Source: Clostridiaceae bacterium
Lineage (GTDB): Bacteria > Bacillota > Clostridia > DSM-8532
Direction: 5' to 3'
DNA: 45,553 nt
Assembly (NCBI GenBank): GCA_012730095.1
Contig: JAAYBO010000194.1
Span: forward strand, 1 to 45,553
Shown here: piece by piece, positions 2,414-37,648 of the stretch
Numbering within the stretch: the first letter of the stretch is position 1
Layout: each line of letters opens with the position of its first letter
Program-made: the position numbers and the translations under genes
The notes under the pieces: generated by a model
Told to the model about the DNA's origin: nothing
The model's input: only the letters and a program-made list of their open reading frames with translations
The model's database searches: none

Positions 2414-3997
2414 TTGTATAAATTACTAGTTGTTGATGATGAAGCTATTGAAAGGGAAGCTTTAAAATTCATTGTTAAAAACAGCAACCTTGAAATCTCG
2501 GAAGTGATGGAAGCAGCAAATGGACTGGAAGCACTTGCGATCGCGGAAAAATTTGATCCTGATATCGTGACATTGGATATTCTGATGCCGGGCATGAACG
2601 GAATTGAAGCAGGGCAAATTCTCAGGGAGAGAAAACCTGAGGTAAAAATTATATTTGTAACGGCTTATGACAGCTTTGAATATGCCCATGAAGCAATAAA
2701 GATAGGGGTGGAGGAATTTATTGTTAAGCCGGGTTCAGATGAACAAACCTTGGAAATTCTGCAATCCTGTATCAAACAGTTGGAAGAAGAACGAATAAAG
2801 AAACTCCGGAATGAATCTCTTGAGGTGAAAATCAATCAAATATCCGGTTATCTTGAAAGTGAGTTTGTCAATTCAGTAGTAAACGGTGAAATTGATGAAC
2901 ATCAGGCAGCGGATTACCTGAAGTTTATGTTAAATCAGTTCTCGGAGGGATTTGGCGTTGTTGTTGAAGTTGATTTTTCAGAAAACAATTCCTCTAACCA
3001 GGTCTACAGAAATATGATCAAGAAAAGGGTTGCACAGCAGCTGTCCGAAACACTTGGTAAAAATACGAAATTTATGATGCATCAGGCGAAAAACACTATC
3101 TATATGCTAATCTTTGGGTATTCACCTGATATGAGAAACCACTGTATAATGCTTATAGATGATGAACTTAAGATGATGGGTGAAGACCTTAACGAGCAAC
3201 TTTCAATAAAGCTGTATTACGGTTTTGGCACCGAATATAAGCAGATATCCCAGTTGTGGAAATCTTTTGCGCAAGCGAAAGCAGCCGCAAGGAATATGCA
3301 TTTATCTGTTATAGAAAATTCCGGCAGCGGACAACCACCTGAATACAGTCTGGAAATAACGGAAAATGAATTGTGGCTTAGCATAATAAATGGAATGGAA
3401 GAGGCTGTTATTCAAAAAGCCGATCATATTCTGGATAATATCATTTTTGCTTCAAACGATATGAATGAGGCAAAGCTGAAACTATACGAGTTTTTCATAT
3501 TAATGAGCCGGTATCTGAACAAGGAGAGTCAGCTAAAGCGAGCGGTCCCGGAAGATGTTTTTAATGATTTGAGAAGTATTGAATCCAGAGGCGAAGCCCG
3601 CAAATACATTCATGGATACCTTTTAGAAGTTTTGGAAGCATTGAAGGAGCAGAGAAGTAACAAGACCCCTGTAATTTTGGATAAAGCCATACAGTTTATA
3701 AATCAAAACTACCGTGAAAACATTACGTTGGAAAACGTCGCTTATGAGGCCGGGTTCAGCACCTATTATTTCGGTAAGCTATTTAAAAAGACTTTCGGTG
3801 TCACCTTCACGGATTACCTTACCAGTCTTCGGATTTCTCGTGCGAAGGAACTTTTAAAGGATCCGTATCTTACGGTTAAGGGCATTACATATCAGGTCGG
3901 GTTTATGGATCCAAACTATTTTACCCGGGTATTTAAAAAATCTGAGGGGCTTACGCCGACAGAATACAGAATAGAATTTTGGCGTGGATCAAAATGA
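2414..3997 (+). CDS. Response regulator with C-terminal AraC-type HTH (YesN-like)
   Basis: TTG start after AGAGAGGTG. The receiver domain has LLVVDDE, DILMPGMNG and a conserved K in VKPG. The C-terminal double HTH (ENVAYEAGFSTYYFGKLFKK ... GFMDPNYFTRVFKK) is typical of AraC/XylS. Confidence 0.9.
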   Translation: MYKLLVVDDEAIEREALKFIVKNSNLEISEVMEAANGLEALAIAEKFDPDIVTLDILMPGMNGIEAGQILRERKPEVKIIFVTAYDSFEYAHEAIKIGVEEFIVKPGSDEQTLEILQSCIKQLEEERIKKLRNESLEVKINQISGYLESEFVNSVVNGEIDEHQAADYLKFMLNQFSEGFGVVVEVDFSENNSSNQVYRNMIKKRVAQQLSETLGKNTKFMMHQAKNTIYMLIFGYSPDMRNHCIMLIDDELKMMGEDLNEQLSIKLYYGFGTEYKQISQLWKSFAQAKAAARNMHLSVIENSGSGQPPEYSLEITENELWLSIINGMEEAVIQKADHILDNIIFASNDMNEAKLKLYEFFILMSRYLNKESQLKRAVPEDVFNDLRSIESRGEARKYIHGYLLEVLEALKEQRSNKTPVILDKAIQFINQNYRENITLENVAYEAGFSTYYFGKLFKKTFGVTFTDYLTSLRISRAKELLKDPYLTVKGITYQVGFMDPNYFTRVFKKSEGLTPTEYRIEFWRGSK

Positions 3998-4103: not shown

Positions 4104-5168
4104 ATGAAAAAGACGCTATTTACTATTCTGATCTGTCTTGTGATGATTTTCTCAATTACAGCATGCTCATTGCAATCACCGACACAACCCACAACACCTG
4201 CTAAAACAGACACACCCAAAACGACTCAACCCGATACTAAGTCTTCGCAGCCAGAAGTCACTCTTGTTTATGCGGAGGTTAATCCGTTAGATTCCATCGT
4301 TGGTAAGATGGCAGTAAAATTTAAAGAGAAAATCGAAGAGCTTTCCGGCGGGAAAATGACTCTTGACATTCAGCACAGCGGTGTTTTAGGCGCTGAGAAC
4401 GATGTACTTGACACAATGCTCGGCGGCGGTGGTACCGTCGATATGTCCCGTATTTCCGCGTTTTCACTGACAAGTTATGGCGGTGAAAAATCGAAGCTGC
4501 TTGCTCTGCCTTTTACATTTGTAAGCCGTGAGCACTTCTGGAATTTCGCGAACTCGGATCTTGCACCTGAATTTCTGCTTGAGCCCCATGAAAACGGAAG
4601 CGGAGTCAGAGGTTTGTTTTATGGCGAAGAAGGATTCCGTCACTTCTTCTCATCAAAGGATATTAACGGGATGGAAGACCTTAAGGGTATGAAAATCCGC
4701 GTATCCGTCGATCCTGTCATGACAGGAATGGTAGAAGCGCTTGGTGCTTCTCCGACCGTCGTGTCCTTCAGCGAACTATACTCCGCACTTCAGACCGGTG
4801 TTGTAGACGCGGCTGAACAGCCCATCGCAAACTATAAAGCAAACTCATTCCAGGAAGTAGCCCCAACAATGATCCTAAACGGACATACTCTTGGCGCGAT
4901 TCAGGTAATCATTACAGACGAAGCCTGGGATAAGCTGACAAAAGAGCAGCAGGATATTCTTATGGAAGCAGGGAAATACGCGTCGGAATATAACAGGCAG
5001 ATTTCCGAACAAGCAGAGAATGAAGTTCTTGAAGAGCTGAAAGCAGAAGGAATAAAGTTTGTTGAAGTGCCGGATAAAAAGCCCTGGCAGGATGCATGTA
5101 AAGACATTATTGAAGCCGAATCGGCTAAATATGCCGACCTTTATAAGAAAATTGTTGACATGCAGTGA
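4104..5168 (+). CDS. dctP: TRAP transporter substrate-binding lipoprotein, DctP family
   Basis: The track ORF starts at 4065, but the ATG at 4104 follows AAGGAGGG with 5-nt spacing. Signal peptide with lipobox FSITAC, then a Thr/Pro-rich linker. DctP-like body, followed by dctQ and dctM. Confidence 0.85.
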   Translation: MKKTLFTILICLVMIFSITACSLQSPTQPTTPAKTDTPKTTQPDTKSSQPEVTLVYAEVNPLDSIVGKMAVKFKEKIEELSGGKMTLDIQHSGVLGAENDVLDTMLGGGGTVDMSRISAFSLTSYGGEKSKLLALPFTFVSREHFWNFANSDLAPEFLLEPHENGSGVRGLFYGEEGFRHFFSSKDINGMEDLKGMKIRVSVDPVMTGMVEALGASPTVVSFSELYSALQTGVVDAAEQPIANYKANSFQEVAPTMILNGHTLGAIQVIITDEAWDKLTKEQQDILMEAGKYASEYNRQISEQAENEVLEELKAEGIKFVEVPDKKPWQDACKDIIEAESAKYADLYKKIVDMQ

Positions 5169-18247: not shown

Positions 18248-19519
18248 TTATGAATTTACCTGCTTAAATTTTTTTAGCCTGTCTAACAGCGTATCTATGT
18301 TAATCATTCTTACTTCTCCGGAACTCATATCCTTTAGTTCAGCCTTTCCGCTTTCAACCTCGTCATCACCTATAACAACAACCAATCTTGCATTGAGCTT
18401 GTTCGCGTATTTCATCTGGGCTTTGACACTTCGACCCATTATATCCTTATGGCATGTAATCCCGTCGGAACGAAGTTTTAATGCCAGGTTTTCGGCAAAA
18501 AGGTTTGCTTTATATCCAATAACACCGATAAATATGTCGGGAGAAGACGGCAAAGGCACATCTATCCCCTGGCTGTCCATTTCAAGAAGCAGTCTTTCAA
18601 TACCAAGGGCAAAACCTATACCCGGTGTGGGACTGCCTCCGCAAGACTCAATAAGACCGTCATATCTGCCGCCGCCGCATACGGTTCCCTGCGAACCTAT
18701 GTTTTTTGAAACAAATTCAAAAACAGTACGAGTATAATAATCCAAACCGCGGACTATCTTTTTATCAATAGTAAACGGTATCCCCATTGCATACAGCTTT
18801 TCCTTTACCTTTTCAAAATGATCGGCGCAGTCACTGCAAATATAATCGAGCAAATAAGGGACATCCTTCAATTCATTTATGCATCCCTGTTCCTTACAGT
18901 CAAGAATCCTCAAAGGGTTCCTTTGATATCTGTCAATGCAGTCTTCGCAGAGCCGGTTCAGCCTCGGTTCGATAAAAGCTTTCAGCGTCTTGTTATAATC
19001 CGCTCGGCATGATGGGCAGCCTATGCTGTTCAGGTTCAGAGAAAGCTCCCTGATTCCAATCGACTCTAAAAACAGATATAAAAGGGATATCACCTCGACA
19101 TCCGCATCGGCTTCCGGAGATCCAAAAAGCTCAACTCCCAATTGGTGGAATTCACGATACCGGCCTTTTTGAACATTTTCATAACGGTATGCCGTAATAT
19201 TGTAAAAAAGCTTTACCGGCTGCGGCCATGAAGCCATTCCGTTTTCAATATAACTTCTGACAACACCCGCGGTTCCTTCAGGCCTTAAGGTAATACTCCT
19301 ACCACCTTTATCGTTAAAAGTATACATTTCTTTTTGGACAATATCCGTGGTATCACCAACCCCTCGCTGAAAAAGCTCCGTATGCTCGAAAAGCGGTATA
19401 CGGATCTCTTGGAATCCGAATCTGCTGCATATGTCACTGAATTTATCTTCCACGTAATGCCATCTGTGTATTTCATCAGGCAGAATATCCCTCGTTCCTT
19501 TAGGCGCTTTAATTAACAT
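18248..19519 (-). CDS. hisS: Histidine--tRNA ligase
   Basis: 423 aa. Starts KGTRDILP. Contains LRPEGTAGVVR, YRYENVQKGRYREFHQ, GGGRYDGL and a C-terminal anticodon-binding domain. Confidence 0.95.
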   Translation of the reverse strand: MLIKAPKGTRDILPDEIHRWHYVEDKFSDICSRFGFQEIRIPLFEHTELFQRGVGDTTDIVQKEMYTFNDKGGRSITLRPEGTAGVVRSYIENGMASWPQPVKLFYNITAYRYENVQKGRYREFHQLGVELFGSPEADADVEVISLLYLFLESIGIRELSLNLNSIGCPSCRADYNKTLKAFIEPRLNRLCEDCIDRYQRNPLRILDCKEQGCINELKDVPYLLDYICSDCADHFEKVKEKLYAMGIPFTIDKKIVRGLDYYTRTVFEFVSKNIGSQGTVCGGGRYDGLIESCGGSPTPGIGFALGIERLLLEMDSQGIDVPLPSSPDIFIGVIGYKANLFAENLALKLRSDGITCHKDIMGRSVKAQMKYANKLNARLVVVIGDDEVESGKAELKDMSSGEVRMINIDTLLDRLKKFKQVNS

Positions 19520-19576: not shown

Positions 19577-19840
19577 TAAAAAAACCTCTGTCCACAACAA
19601 AGGGACGAGAGGTATTCCCGCGGTACCACCCTATTGGAAGTTAAACTTCCGCTTTTACCATTAACGCAGGTCTTTACGTGCCGGACTACAACCCTTACGC
19701 AGCATTCATCCGGCCGGCTCCGGGGTGTTCTTTCACCGACAAGCTTCCAAAAAACGCTTTCAGTCACGGCGTTTTATCCCTGTTGGGCATAACCGGCTAC
19801 TTGTCCCCTTCCTTGCCTTTTCGGTATCTAACAATTATTG
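19577..19840 (-). promoter_or_regulatory. T-box riboswitch leader of hisS-aspS-lepB
   Basis: Minus-strand AATAGGGTGGTACCGCGGG (19617-19635) is the canonical T-box sequence. Its 3' half can instead pair into the terminator ACCTCTCG...CAGAGGT followed by seven T (19577-19613). A stem-III-like hairpin GGAAGT-tta-ACTTCC lies just upstream. Specifier codon not assigned. Confidence 0.85.
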
Positions 19841-19874: not shown

Positions 19875-20003
19875 CTAATGGCTCAGAACTGAATTCATCC
19901 CGCTGCGTTTTTGGTATTATTTCAGCGGGCCCTGCTTTTCCTTTTTACCTTTACAATAATAGCAGGATACTTTAAGATAAAGTAAGAAATGGGCGGTGAA
20001 AAA

Positions 20004-21557: not shown

Positions 21558-21643
21558 TGGTGCCGCTGGCCGGAGTCGAACCGGCACGTCCAGAGGACAC
21601 TTGATTTTGAGTCAAGCACGTCTGCCAATTCCATCACAGCGGC
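21558..21643 (-). tRNA. tRNA-Leu (anticodon CAA), CCA encoded
   Basis: Minus strand reads GCCGCTGTGATGGAATTGGCAGACGTGCTTGACTCAAAATCAAGTGTCCTCTGGACGTGCCGGTTCGACTCCGGCCAGCGGCACCA. It has a 7-bp acceptor stem, anticodon loop CTCAAAA, a long variable arm and a GGTTCGA T-loop. Confidence 0.95.
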
Positions 21644-21863
21644 AAATATTTACTTAAGCCGGCATTTCTATATAATAACTTTTCCAAAAAATCCTGTGTT
21701 AGTGTTAATTTGCCCGCTCAATATGCATCGCTTTAATATATTAACACAGACATATCTCGAAATCAAGTAGTGTAAAATCTTTCTTCCACCAAATAGCCAG
21801 CGGGTGATTCGGGTGCTTTCGGTCGCGCCGGGCAACATGCTCCAGCGTCCTGCTGCTTTACGG

Positions 21864-22000
21864 AAAATGTGGAGCGGGCAAATGAGCGACCCGGGATATG
21901 GAGACCTCTATGTGAAAATATAAAGGTTTCTGGAGCGTGTTATCGGTATGTGCTTTGTTGCCCAAGGAAACGAAACACCCGAAGCAGGACCCGCGGGAAT
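21864..22000 (+). repeat. Copy 1 of a ~135-nt GC-rich repeat (inverted partner at 36445-36576)
   Basis: By-eye alignment to the reverse complement of 36445-36576 gives roughly 80 percent identity. Long identical blocks include GTGGAGCGGG, GGGATATGGAGACC and AAGGAAACGAAACACCC. The region is GC-rich relative to its AT-rich flanks. Confidence 0.7.
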
Positions 22001-22014
22001 ATGTTCTGAAATTG

Positions 22015-22407
22015 CTATTGCCCGCCGGTAAGACTATTAATAATCTCCTGCTCATTTTCGTTTCCGCTAAACTTGTATACCCCTGGAAATATTTTGTCTT
22101 CTGCCTTTTGATTTAATACTTTAAGCTGAAACTGCATGTTTTCCTTTATAAGACCCGTATCCTGAAGCTTTTTGGCAATCTGCGCCAGAGTATCACTTTC
22201 TTCAACCTCAATGGAAATCTTACCATTAACACCAATCCGGGTAATTTCTCCAGGCTCGATCATTCCGTATTTTTTAGCAAGTGATTTAACCTTAGCTTCA
22301 TCCATTTCGGGAGTATATCCAAGAAAAAATATACACCCTAACAAAGCTGTCAAAATAACTCCCAAACCCATTCCAAGCAATACACTTTTTCCATGGATTT
22401 TTGTCAT
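22015..22407 (-). CDS. Small membrane-anchored protein with a YceG/MltG N-terminal-like domain
   Basis: One TM helix ([21 protein letters not shown]), then [28 protein letters not shown]...[24 protein letters not shown]. This resembles the LysM-like N-domain of YceG/MltG without the catalytic part. Confidence 0.6.
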
Positions 22408-34222: not shown

Positions 34223-36253
34223 TTATGATACTGATACCATTCCAACCGAATTTATTTCCATGCCCGGATCCAGTTCATTGTATGATAAAACCACAAGACC
34301 TGGTATTGATTGCTCCGTAAGCCGTTTGAAATATAACCGCACAACAGGCGATGCAAGGACAACAGGCTGTTTACCCAGTTGAACAATTTTTTCAACATGC
34401 TTGACAAGATTGTTTATTATTTTATTTATAACGGATGGCTCAATAGTCAGGTATGATCCAACCTCGGTTTTTTGTACGGAATCCATTATCATTTGTTCCA
34501 ATTGAGGATCAATTGTTATAACATCGGAATTCTCCGGAGTGATAAACGCTCTTGATATGGCCCTTCCAAGTGCCTGCCTGACATATTCGGTAAGCATGTC
34601 CGTATCGCGGGTAACCGGAGCATAATCAGCAAGCGTTTCTAAAATTGTAACCATATCACGTATTGACACCCCTTCACGCAGCAGATTCGCAAGTACTTTC
34701 TGTACTTCTCCGAGAGAAAGCTGTTTGGGAACCAGTTCCTCTACAATTGCCGGGTATGAATTTTTAACATTATCCAGTAACGTTTGAACATCCTGCCGGC
34801 CAAGTAGTTCATGGGCATGTTTTTTAATAACCTCGGTCATATGCGTTGCAATAATGGAAGGCGGATCGACAACAGTGTAACCGAGCATTTCAGCTATGTC
34901 ACGCTGGCTTTCGGTAATCCAGATCGCCGGCAGCCCGAAAGCCGGTTCCGCAGTAGGTATCCCATCTATCTCTTCTTCTGCGGTACCAGGGTTCATCGCC
35001 ATAAAATGATCCATCATCAATTCACCGCTTGAAACCTCTACGCCCTTTATTTTTATCACATATTGGCTGGGGCTTAGCTGTATATTGTCACGCAGCCGGA
35101 TAATTGGAACAATCATTCCAAGCTCAAGCGCAAGCTGCCTTCTTATCATAACCACCCTGTCAAGAAGGTCACCGCCCTGGTTGACATCAGCCAAAGGAAT
35201 TATTCCATATCCGAATTCAAGCTCAATCGGGTCAACGTGCAAAAGAGATACAACATTTTCAGGCTTTCGTATTTCCTCTACCTTCATTTCTTCAGTAACA
35301 ACCTCGCCCTTCTCAAGCTCTTCCTTTTCTATCGCGCTTAACCGCGCACCGAGATATATGAGAAAAATAGCTACAACAATCATAAAAAACTGGCCAATAA
35401 TAAATGTCATTACAAAACACGCACCGGCGGCAATATACAAAACCTTCGGGTTGCTTATTAACTGGGTTACTATTTCCTGTCCAAGATCATCCTCCGAAGC
35501 CGCGCGTGTTACAATTATTCCGGTAGCAATCGATATCAACAGCGAAGGTACCTGGCTTACAAGCCCATCACCAATAGTTAGTATTGTATATTTTGTCAGT
35601 ACTTGTGCGACTGTAAGACCGGCTCCCTGTGTCATTCCCATAATAAAACCACCAATAATATTTAAAGCGGTGGCAATAAATCCAAAAATTGCATCGTTTT
35701 TAACAAATTTACTTGCACCGTCCATGGAGCCATAAAAATCCGCTTCTCTTTGGATTCTTTTCCGTCTTTCCTTTGCTTCGGATTCGTTTATCAAACCACT
35801 GTTAAGATCCGCATCGATTGCCATCTGTTTTCCGGGCATTGCGTCAAGTGTAAAGCGGGCTGCGACTTCTGAAACTCGCTCCGCGCCTTTTGTTATGACA
35901 AGGAATTGAACAATCATAATAATAAGGAATACTATCGCGCCGACTACAACATTATTGCCCCCGACAAATTCTCCAAAGCTCTGGATAACCTTTCCGGCTT
36001 CGCCCTGTCCAATGATAAGCCTTGTGGACGCAACATTCAAAGCCAGCCGGTATAAAGTTGTAAACAGTAATATCGTAGGGAAAGCCGACATCGACAAAGC
36101 ATCTTTTGCATAGATCGCATTTAGAAGGATTAATAACGCAAGGGTTAGATTAATAACCAGCAGAATGTCCAATAACAACATGGGCATAGGAACAAGGATA
36201 ACTAAAAGTATAATTACGGCCCATACCGCTATTAGAACACTTTTAATGCCCAT
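34223..36253 (-). CDS. flhA: Flagellar type III export apparatus protein FlhA
   Basis: ATG at 36253 (MGIKS...) follows ACGGAGG, while the longer track ORF has no RBS. Conserved FHIPEP-type N-terminal membrane domain (RFTLDAMPGKQMAIDADL) and a large cytoplasmic domain. Confidence 0.95.
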   Translation of the reverse strand: MGIKSVLIAVWAVIILLVILVPMPMLLLDILLVINLTLALLILLNAIYAKDALSMSAFPTILLFTTLYRLALNVASTRLIIGQGEAGKVIQSFGEFVGGNNVVVGAIVFLIIMIVQFLVITKGAERVSEVAARFTLDAMPGKQMAIDADLNSGLINESEAKERRKRIQREADFYGSMDGASKFVKNDAIFGFIATALNIIGGFIMGMTQGAGLTVAQVLTKYTILTIGDGLVSQVPSLLISIATGIIVTRAASEDDLGQEIVTQLISNPKVLYIAAGACFVMTFIIGQFFMIVVAIFLIYLGARLSAIEKEELEKGEVVTEEMKVEEIRKPENVVSLLHVDPIELEFGYGIIPLADVNQGGDLLDRVVMIRRQLALELGMIVPIIRLRDNIQLSPSQYVIKIKGVEVSSGELMMDHFMAMNPGTAEEEIDGIPTAEPAFGLPAIWITESQRDIAEMLGYTVVDPPSIIATHMTEVIKKHAHELLGRQDVQTLLDNVKNSYPAIVEELVPKQLSLGEVQKVLANLLREGVSIRDMVTILETLADYAPVTRDTDMLTEYVRQALGRAISRAFITPENSDVITIDPQLEQMIMDSVQKTEVGSYLTIEPSVINKIINNLVKHVEKIVQLGKQPVVLASPVVRLYFKRLTEQSIPGLVVLSYNELDPGMEINSVGMVSVS

Positions 36254-36381: not shown

Positions 36382-36410
36382 ATTTTACTTTATTTTTACA
36401 AAATAAACAA
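36382..36410 (-). promoter_or_regulatory. Candidate sigma-A promoter for flhA (TTGTTT-17-TAAAAT)
   Basis: On the minus strand, -35 at 36410-36405 and -10 at 36387-36382, about 125 nt upstream of the flhA ATG. The DNA is AT-rich, so this could be a chance match. Confidence 0.3.
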
Positions 36411-36444: not shown

Positions 36445-36576
36445 ATTCCGGGCCCTGCTTTGGGTGTTTCGTTTCCTTAAGTGACAAAGAACATACCAAT
36501 AGCACGCTTTAGGTCCTTTTTATTTCTAATGAGGGGTCTCCATATCCCAGGCCGCTCATTTACCCGCTCCACTTTT
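36445..36576 (-). repeat. Copy 2 of the ~135-nt GC-rich repeat (inverted relative to 21864-22000)
   Basis: The reverse complement aligns with 21864-22000 (see copy 1). The strand given is relative to copy 1; the functional strand is unknown. Confidence 0.7.
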
Positions 36577-36665
36577 GCGATTTATGTTAATTAAACAATT
36601 TCTTGTTCACAAAAAGACAAACTGCTCAATATGATAATAGTAGATTAACATAAGGAGGTTTGGAT

Positions 36666-36797
36666 ATGGATAATGTTGGCGTAAGAGGCTTATTCGGCAA
36701 GCGCTGTGACAGCGAAATACTTTTTTTCATAATCCTTTTCCTGCTTCTGTTCTTTGACGATAGTTGCTGCAGAAGGTCTGGCAGGTTTTTTGATTAA
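36666..36797 (+). CDS. Candidate 43-aa hydrophobic Cys-containing peptide
   Basis: AAGGAGG lies 7 nt before the ATG. Sequence MDNVGVRGLFGKRCDSEILFFIILFLLLFFDDSCCRRSGRFFD. A plus-strand terminator lies 27 nt after the stop. It is below the ORF-track cutoff, and no homology check was possible. Confidence 0.4.
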   Translation: MDNVGVRGLFGKRCDSEILFFIILFLLLFFDDSCCRRSGRFFD

Positions 36798-36823
36798 TCG
36801 CCGTTAAGCTTATGTTAACTTCG

Positions 36824-36850
36824 AAATCCTCTGCAAAGCAGGGGATTTTT
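36824..36850 (+). terminator. Rho-independent terminator (11-bp stem plus T-run)
   Basis: AAATCCTCTGC-aaa-GCAGGGGATTT followed by TT. The T-run is on the plus strand only, so it fits the small plus-strand ORF better than pstB. Confidence 0.6.
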
Positions 36851-36862
36851 CATGCACCGGAT

Positions 36863-37648
36863 TTACAAGCCCGGCATTATGCCGGATATATAATTTTTAG
36901 TCCTCTGATCCCTGGGAAATTCAAAAAATTCCTTGGCACTCCCCGCTTCAACCACTTCACCGAAGTATAAAAAAACAACATAATCGGATAATCGTCTTGC
37001 TTGCCGCAGGACATGACTTACCATTACAATAGTATAGTCCTGTCTCAAAGCAAGCAGCAGAGATTCTATTTTCTCTGATGAAATAGGATCAAGCGCCGAA
37101 GTAATCTCGTCGCAAAGAATCACTTCGGGCTCGACAGCAAGCGCTCTTGCTATGCATAACCGCTGTTGCTGGCCGATTGAAAGAGCAACCGCAGGTTCTT
37201 TAAGTCGGTCTTTTATTTCTTCCCATAAATATGTTCTCTTAAGGCAGCTTTCCACAATATCATCGAGCTCACTTTTTTTTCTTTTCCCATGGAGCCGGGG
37301 CCCGAATGCCACATTATCGTATATGTTGGCCGGCAAAGGATAAGGTCTTTGAGCTATAAGCCCCACCTTTCTCCGCAGTTCGTTTACCTGACGCCGGGTG
37401 TTGTATATATCCTCATCTCCAATAAATATTTGACCTTCAACTCTTATATTTTCCTGAATGTCATGCAAACGGTTTATTGACTTCAAAAGAGTCGTTTTTC
37501 CGCATCCTGATGGGCCAATTATGCTTGTCAGCCTGTTTTTTGGAATATCAAGGCTTACATCTTTCAATATATGTGAATATTTTTGCTTTTTGTTTATAGA
37601 GTATATGTTTAAATTTCTTATTCTTATCTCTATTTCTTTTTTAGGCAT
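36863..37648 (-). CDS. pstB: Phosphate ABC transporter ATP-binding protein PstB
   Basis: Walker A GPSGCGKTT, signature LSIGQQQRL, Walker B VILCDEITSALD. PstB-typical length of 261 aa. Confidence 0.95.
   Translation of the reverse strand: MPKKEIEIRIRNLNIYSINKKQKYSHILKDVSLDIPKNRLTSIIGPSGCGKTTLLKSINRLHDIQENIRVEGQIFIGDEDIYNTRRQVNELRRKVGLIAQRPYPLPANIYDNVAFGPRLHGKRKKSELDDIVESCLKRTYLWEEIKDRLKEPAVALSIGQQQRLCIARALAVEPEVILCDEITSALDPISSEKIESLLLALRQDYTIVMVSHVLRQARRLSDYVVFLYFGEVVEAGSAKEFFEFPRDQRTKNYISGIMPGL

Follow-up and report, generated by a model that had tools for sequence, protein, structure and literature searches.

The two GC-rich stretches at 21864–22000 and 36445–36576 of the window (the whole stretch of DNA analysed here, 45,553 nt of contig JAAYBO010000194.1 from a Clostridiaceae bacterium) are probably copies of a family of small MITE-type elements, non-coding and non-autonomous, that had not been catalogued before. 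The family is multicopy, with inverted repeats, target-site duplications and lineage-specific subfamilies, and it is in decay at both of the window's sites. The preliminary description of this DNA leaned towards an undescribed structured RNA and gave the end of a mobile element and a gene remnant as the other options. The mobile-element option proved to be essentially right, but the two stretches come from the inside of a small non-autonomous element, its core, and not from the end of an insertion sequence (IS).

A blastn search of 21864–22000 against the window aligned 21865–21993 (+) with 36576–36449 (−) at 80.6% identity over 129 nt (E = 4e-29) and one net indel, in agreement with the initial estimate of an inverted pair that is approximately 80% identical. 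No third match was found in the window at E < 0.1. Both copies are intergenic and GC-rich, as first described, with GC contents of 49.6% (copy 1) and 47.1% (copy 2) compared with 40.2% for the whole window. Their limits needed correction: the matching stretches are real, but the original size of about 135 nt is too small for a unit of ~198 nt. Copy 1 (21799–21996, +) matches positions 1–198 of the family profile (nhmmer; E = 3.9e-59) as a complete ~198-nt core, AGCGGGTGATTCGGGTG...CAGGACCCGCGG, and can be aligned with 52 and with 102 other full copies in two alignments. Its conserved unit starts 65 nt upstream of 21864, and 21864–22000 represents the 3' two-thirds of the core. Copy 2 (36449–36578, −) matches model positions 65–195 only (E = 3.1e-31) and is without the first ~64 positions of the unit; the pair therefore consists of one complete core and one 5'-truncated copy. 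A degenerate relic of ~50 nt at ~19891–19941 (+) appears, from its sequence, to derive from the same repeat family. It was recognized by eye only as a probable third, highly eroded copy, a two-unit junction (GAATTCAT CCCGCTG, 17 nt, CAGCGGG CCCTGCTTTTCC) that gives no nhmmer match with the family profile; the orthologous spacer in locus L001 of a relative, beside the hisS T-box, holds a full unit and a partial unit. In the window, a T-box leader (Rfam RF00230, 111 bits; 19598–19822, −) lies upstream of the histidyl-tRNA synthetase gene (18248–19519, −).

Copy 1 is situated between a tRNA-Leu gene (21558–21643, −), together with the promoter of that gene, and the stop codon of a small gene with a YceG domain (22015–22407, −), the copy's edge being 18 nt past this stop codon. 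The YceG-domain gene is the last gene of a long minus-strand flagellar/chemotaxis operon, the first gene of which is flhA (34226–36253, −). Copy 2 is flanked by flhA and pstB (36863–37648, −). A σ70-like promoter (TTGTTT-N17-TAAAAT, ~36382–36410, −), nearly invariant in four relatives, is found upstream of flhA; copy 2 lies upstream of this promoter and is therefore not an flhA leader. Several other features of these surroundings were observed. The tRNA-Leu(CAA) promoter (TTGATT-N17-TAATAT, ~21738–21766, −), which adjoins copy 1, is conserved in loci L001, L004 and L005. The flagellar block starts at flhA straight after the phosphate ABC transporter operon, with no flhB upstream. The nucleotide sequence of the ~250 nt downstream of pstB (36600–36860, −), which includes a 34-codon ORF (36626–36730, MKKSISLSQRLPNKPLTPTLSISKPPYVN...) and a hairpin just past the pstB stop codon, is highly conserved in L079 and L081.

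As copy 1 lies beyond the 3' end of the operon and copy 2 upstream of flhA, the copies bracket the operon in inverted orientation. That they flank a ~14-kb operon in this way is most likely a coincidence. Inverted copies that enclose everything from flhA through the yceG-like gene could in principle serve as recombination sites for flipping a ~14.4-kb flagellar/chemotaxis block, as in a phase-variation switch, but this is scarcely credible: the identity is only 80.6%, with a longest well-matched stretch of 38 nt at 92%, and no recombinase gene lies beside either copy. The switch was rejected on account of this low identity, the truncation of copy 2 and the conservation of gene order and orientation in a relative's contig, SAHD_10004008, which carries remnants only.

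The family unit is ~198 nt in length (AGCGGGTG...CCCGCGG); this length includes a 5' module of ~65 nt, beyond the stretch first described, that nearly all copies have in common. The first loci from relatives were fetched via the YceG-like protein and carry the element together with partial copies. An exact-pattern scan located 73 loci in eight species-representative metagenome-assembled genomes (MAGs), with ~28 matches in Clostridiales bacterium DTU069, ~21 in Clostridiaceae AS02xzSISU_46, 17 in Clostridia SMAG_U7118 and small numbers in the five other MAGs. A second exact-pattern scan located at least 110 metagenome loci, and those records that have descriptive names are bioreactor metagenomes. 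Over 1.54 Mb of fetched loci, from genomes other than the window's own, nhmmer gave 264 matches, of which 116 are unique full-length copies; the median pairwise identity among full-length copies is 81%. The copies occur as dispersed singles, as tandem arrays with a ~216-nt period, as internally deleted minis and as solo ends, and the subfamilies defined by a variable hairpin are largely genome-specific. Homologues run to dozens of copies in a few related genomes. The family is restricted to a narrow group of uncultured Clostridia that are related to Thermoclostridium and apparently come from anaerobic digesters. The only copy outside the Bacillota (L037; contig JAAYYW010000428.1, 2.4 kb) was binned as Leptolinea sp., which is probably a binning error and not horizontal spread.

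Plasmid, phage and literature searches for the family gave no match. Rfam 15 was searched at the gathering score with the whole window and at E ≤ 10 with the unit (from the window and from two other subfamilies). Nothing matched the element, in line with the first impression that no known RNA family could be recognized; the matches in the whole window are the T-box leader and two tRNAs only. When ORFs of at least 120 amino acids from 78 loci were clustered, no recurrent gene families were found beside the copies except spurious repeat-spanning ORFs and ordinary paralogues (ABC ATPases, GGDEF/HD, AraC and aldo-keto reductase). No promoter or terminator consensus accompanies the unit, and the tandem arrays leave no space for either because their linkers are only 16–20 nt long.

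No conserved ORF was found within the unit across subfamilies. Both window copies have short open frames such as V/M-ERVNERPGIWRPL, which would be in keeping with protein-coding gene remnants or small-peptide genes. This is a highly improbable explanation, since the start and the frame vary by subfamily (GTGGAGCG versus ATGAGCG, one base apart), indels are frequent, stop codons fall within the variable hairpin and none of the three codon positions varies in the conserved blocks. With no frame common to the subfamilies, the gene-remnant option of the preliminary description was rejected, together with that of a small peptide.

Evidence of transposition comes from the outer ends. Several members carry 12-bp terminal inverted repeats (TIRs; GTTACTGTTCAG...CTGAACAGTAAC) located 14–48 nt outside the unit. 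Target-site duplications were assessed for four copies, all from outside the window. The duplications are perfect (8/8) in L032 (GCGCGAGA, 256-bp element) and L036 (GATTTAAG), and L047 has a 6/8 match around a 300-bp element; mismatched controls gave 0–2/8. The complete element is ~255–300 bp long, with measured examples of 256 and 300 bp. Outer TIRs with duplications are recognized in only three to four copies, and both window copies and most others are without them. In the 1.54 Mb of fetched loci, no pairs of inner or outer inverted repeats were found 0.7–5 kb apart, the spacing sought for an autonomous parent, and no transposase adjoins any copy; nor is there a RAYT or Y1 transposase next to any copy.

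The fetched loci also contain a second repeat family of ~200 nt with 18-bp inverted repeat ends (GAACTATTGTACAATAAC / GTTATTGCACAATAGTTC), for example at 3773–3985 and 4245–4460 of L064, and also in L052, L056, L077 and others. These ends have 265 matches in the fetched loci and none in the window, and in DTU069-like genomes the second family alternates with the ~198-nt unit in arrays. Since these ends are similar to the outer inverted repeats of the present family, the two may share a transposase.

The core itself is built from nested inverted repeats. The unit ends are imperfect inverted repeats of ~25–30 bp (AGCGGGTGGTTCGGGTGYTTTCGG / CGAAACACCCGAACCAGGACCCGCGG) that are present in all full cores, and a second inverted pair (GGGCGACA / TGTCGCCC) is nested inside them. 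In copy 1, the 5' arm of the closing stem (helices 1 and 2), which is the inner terminal inverted repeat, spans 21799–21827 (+, AGCGGGTGATTCGGGTGCTTTCGG...) and pairs with a 3' arm at 21970–21996 (+, ACGAAACACCCGAAGCAGGACCCGCGG) that was delimited from the alignments and covariation. The second nested repeat (helix 3) pairs 21830–21837 (+, GGGCAACA) with 21956–21963 (+, TGTTGCCC); the variants of this helix across the family are GGGCGACA/TGTCGCCC, GGGCAACA/TGTTGCCC and GAGCGGCA/TGCCGCTC. An optional hairpin module of ~50 nt (GGGTCGAGGCATTGCTGCCGCGTTCCGGTGGGTACGCGGCT) is inserted in one stem arm or the other, at an identical point but in reversed orientation (5060–5130 and 4860–4920 of L046; 5' arm in L031, L044 and L058; 3' arm in L030, L059 and L061). 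The module resembles either an even smaller site-specific insertion or a longer inverted repeat that is ancestral.

The stems were resolved with profile HMM and MAFFT alignments of 103 non-redundant copies. In this set, 95.3% of the cells are paired in the predicted structure, compared with 37–50% when the partners are slid, and there are 140 double-change cells compared with 35 in shuffles. Compensatory double changes are found in ten of the 17 pairs in the main stretch of the outer stem (helices 1 and 2) and in four of the eight in the second stem; the five interior helices have 0–1 pairs with double changes. Covariation, proposed at the outset as a check on the RNA reading, is thus present yet limited to the long closing stem and the nested inverted repeats. 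The full unit of copy 1 has a predicted folding energy of −85.2 kcal/mol (z = −4.3) and its reverse complement has a z score of −4.2, with means over 40 family members of −3.0 and −3.3 on opposite strands. The two strands fold equally well; the structure is therefore that expected of nested inverted repeats, and neither strand stands out. Copy 2 is without the 5' arms of both stems and is therefore unable to form the family closing stem; its fold is no better than those of shuffles (z = +0.66). The folds of the ~137-nt segments originally delimited (z scores from −1.7 to +0.7) are uninformative because the 5' arm is missing. The suggestion that the differences between the copies are mostly transitions that preserve pairing holds for the closing stem only, which is the stem that copy 2 cannot form. 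On the + strand, G-U exceeds A-C in the stems (57:33 and 17:9), a ratio of only about 1.8:1. No conclusion is drawn on the acting strand because the signals conflict: the thermodynamics are neutral, the G-U excess mildly favours the + strand and the orientation of the copies places the + strand mostly antisense.

These data bear directly on the possibility that the unit is a multicopy structured noncoding RNA with a regulatory, guide or scaffold function of its own, its genomic spread being secondary. Its attractions are a full unit that folds far better than shuffles, the fourfold excess of compensatory double changes, the heterogeneous conservation with near-invariant unpaired blocks, a divergence slower than that of fourfold-degenerate sites at shared positions and the G-U excess on the + strand. 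We nevertheless consider such an RNA unlikely. A curated Rfam match and strand-specific covariation beyond the inverted repeats are both absent, the reverse strand is as structured as the forward strand, and the 16–20-nt array linkers are too short for the promoter or terminator that the unit itself is without. Furthermore, the copies lie in both orientations to their neighbouring genes, antisense in most cases, and close relatives have truncated or internally deleted copies or have lost them; positional orthologues are not nearest relatives, and copy 2 in the window is without the whole 5' third.

The mobile, decaying character of the family is evident from its rearrangements and from comparison of the window's sites with those of relatives. 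Head-to-tail arrays of 3–4 units with a period of ~216 nt are found in L035 and L166, and the derivatives seen include stem-only minis and repeated right ends. At the site of copy 1, L005 has a full unit and L001 and L004 have internally deleted remnants only; at the site of copy 2, L079 (FlhA 96% identical) retains the last ~17 nt and L081 has nothing recognizable. A search for a perfectly clean empty site, which was swamped by the second repeat family, recovered none, and the sole good empty-site match (window ~19.9 kb versus L001) also holds a relic. In four of the seven cases in which species share a site, the positional orthologue occupies only ranks 61–88 among ~120 copies; for the three DTU069 queries among these four sites, the nearest copies are 90–93% identical and come from DTU069-derived records. 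In L005, the YceG-domain ORF (3001–3456) encodes 151 amino acids compared with 130 in the window (22015–22407) because it reads into a partial repeat copy, and the repeat insertion has thus altered the C-terminus of this gene.

The persistence of an element or remnant at the exact copy-1 site in four lineages could instead point to a domesticated mobile element, comparable to REP/BIME or ERIC, whose co-transcribed stem would act as an mRNA 3'-end stabilizer or a transcription barrier, with copy 1 marking the 3' end of the flagellar operon. The start of copy 1 so close to the stop codon of the last operon gene, the prediction of no intrinsic terminator before the one following tRNA-Leu and the orientation bias would fit such a role. 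Domestication is nonetheless distinctly unlikely. At the copy-1 site, nothing but short remnants is left in L001 and L004, so the full structure is dispensable there, and promoter-side and divergent spacers carry copies equally often.

MITEs are defined as small elements without a transposase that have terminal inverted repeats, a target-site duplication and a long stem-loop (PMC3184786). The present family agrees with this definition in size (a 198-nt core and elements of 256 and 300 bp, within the range of ~100–400 bp, and with no transposase gene) and in having dispersed copies whose presence differs between genomes (17–28 matches per genome in three MAGs, and remnants at both window sites in relatives). 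TIRs and target-site duplications are found in several members, although not in the window copies. Like the bacterial MITEs Correia/NEMIS of Neisseria, RUP of Streptococcus pneumoniae and ERIC/IRU of enterobacteria, which are ~200–300 bp in length, the family is non-coding, multicopy and intergenic, with TIRs, a flanking target-site duplication and a long stem-loop. It differs from these in that no parent IS was identified among the 1.54 Mb of fetched loci, in the second and third tiers of nested inverted repeats and the unusually conserved unpaired blocks of its core, in its frequent head-to-tail ~216-nt arrays and in the loss of the outer inverted repeats from most copies.

The closest counterpart in behaviour is bcr1 of the Bacillus cereus group, which has short flanking direct repeats, compensatory changes that maintain its fold and a distribution that is not conserved between relatives (PMC3184786). 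Both bcr1 (of the bcr1–bcr18 repeats) and the present family are interspersed Firmicute repeats of ~155–300 bp with such a non-conserved distribution. There is no sequence similarity between them, however, and the duplication is 8 bp in the present family compared with 5 bp in bcr1. The present family folds into one long closing stem, whereas bcr1 forms a cruciform of two independent hairpins, and transcription is known for bcr1.

Other classes of repeat agree less well with the family. REP/BIME elements, which are mobilized by RAYT, are likewise GC-rich, palindromic and intergenic, with mosaic or tandem arrangements with defined linkers, an orientation bias and possible effects at mRNA 3' ends. 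REP units are, however, palindromes of 20–40 nt accompanied by a RAYT gene, compared with a unit of ~198 nt and no RAYT/Y1 gene next to the copies here, and REPs make no target-site duplications, unlike the present family. The PATEs derived from IS200/IS605 and the ORF-less copies of ω-RNA/HEARO are also multicopy, ORF-less and structured, with an orientation bias that is possibly replication-coupled. They have no TIRs and no target duplication, PATEs having subterminal hairpins only, whereas TIRs and 8-bp duplications are present in this family. Nor do the HEARO and IS605-orfB models of Rfam match, and no tnpA, tnpB or iscB gene lies nearby.

Several properties of the family fit poorly with a plain MITE. 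The blocks TGAGCGACCCGGGATATGGAGACC and GTGCTTTGT are nearly invariant, including in nine copies that lie outside the search-pattern selection, and their conservation is much greater than would be expected for the neutrally decaying interior of a MITE. In each of the seven shared sites, similarity is higher for the element than for the fourfold-degenerate sites of the flanking genes (0.76–0.98 compared with 0.62–0.85). We attribute this excess to turnover or conversion, although selection may also contribute; in situ purifying selection as proof of function was rejected because the positional orthologues are not nearest relatives. A linker-like motif of ~17 nt (GAATAATGYNNNAAA) is present on both flanks of many single copies, which would also fit integration by site-specific recombination. 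The copies are biased in orientation: within the set of loci L006–L191, in which the counts of each test are not fully independent, 49 copies are antisense and 18 sense between co-directional genes (n = 67), and relative to local GC skew the division is 74 to 26 (n = 100), the 74 being copies whose G-rich strand coincides with the locally C-rich strand of the DNA. This bias of ~3:1 is not predicted by simple random insertion, and could result from replication-coupled insertion, from selection or from the non-independence of the counts.

A doubtful but more far-reaching explanation is that the ~198-nt core is not passive cargo but a functional nucleic-acid module needed for its own mobility, such as a structured single-stranded DNA or RNA recognized by a recombinase or an RNA-guided enzyme, with integration at the ~17-nt linker-like site. 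If true, this would account for the near-invariant unpaired blocks, the linker on both flanks and the fixed-period arrays, and also for the replacement of copies at the same site by genome-specific subfamilies and the 3:1 orientation bias.

For the MITE-type family that we favour, the following course of events would be consistent with the data. A transposase encoded elsewhere in the genome would mobilize the elements in trans, each complete element consisting of outer 12-bp TIRs, flanked by an 8-bp target-site duplication, with the ~198-nt GC-rich core inside. The nested inverted repeats at the ends of the core would let either strand fold into a long stem, and recombination between repeats after insertion would generate the ~216-nt-period arrays, the internal deletions and the solo ends. 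Copy 1 would then be a complete core from which the outer ends have gone, lodged between the tRNA-Leu promoter and the last stop codon of the flagellar/chemotaxis operon, and copy 2 would be a defunct relic, truncated at its 5' end, that lies upstream of the promoter of flhA. Any effect on neighbouring transcripts is, like the transposase acting in trans, inferred.

Taken together, the analysis explains the two GC-rich islands beside the flagellar operon as probable transposon debris and removes them as a candidate for a novel structured RNA. It also defines a new MITE-type family of uncultured Clostridia, apparently associated with digesters, by its 198-nt core, its outer inverted repeats and its 8-bp duplication. 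With the family profile, these repeats can be masked in searches for RNA motifs and in MAG assembly and binning, since they lie at the ends of contigs and a contig binned as Leptolinea carries one copy. The profile is also suited as a marker for recent genome dynamics among these Clostridia. Further, the unusual conservation of the core, the arrays of fixed period and the bias in orientation could indicate that the elements are mobilized by a less conventional mechanism.
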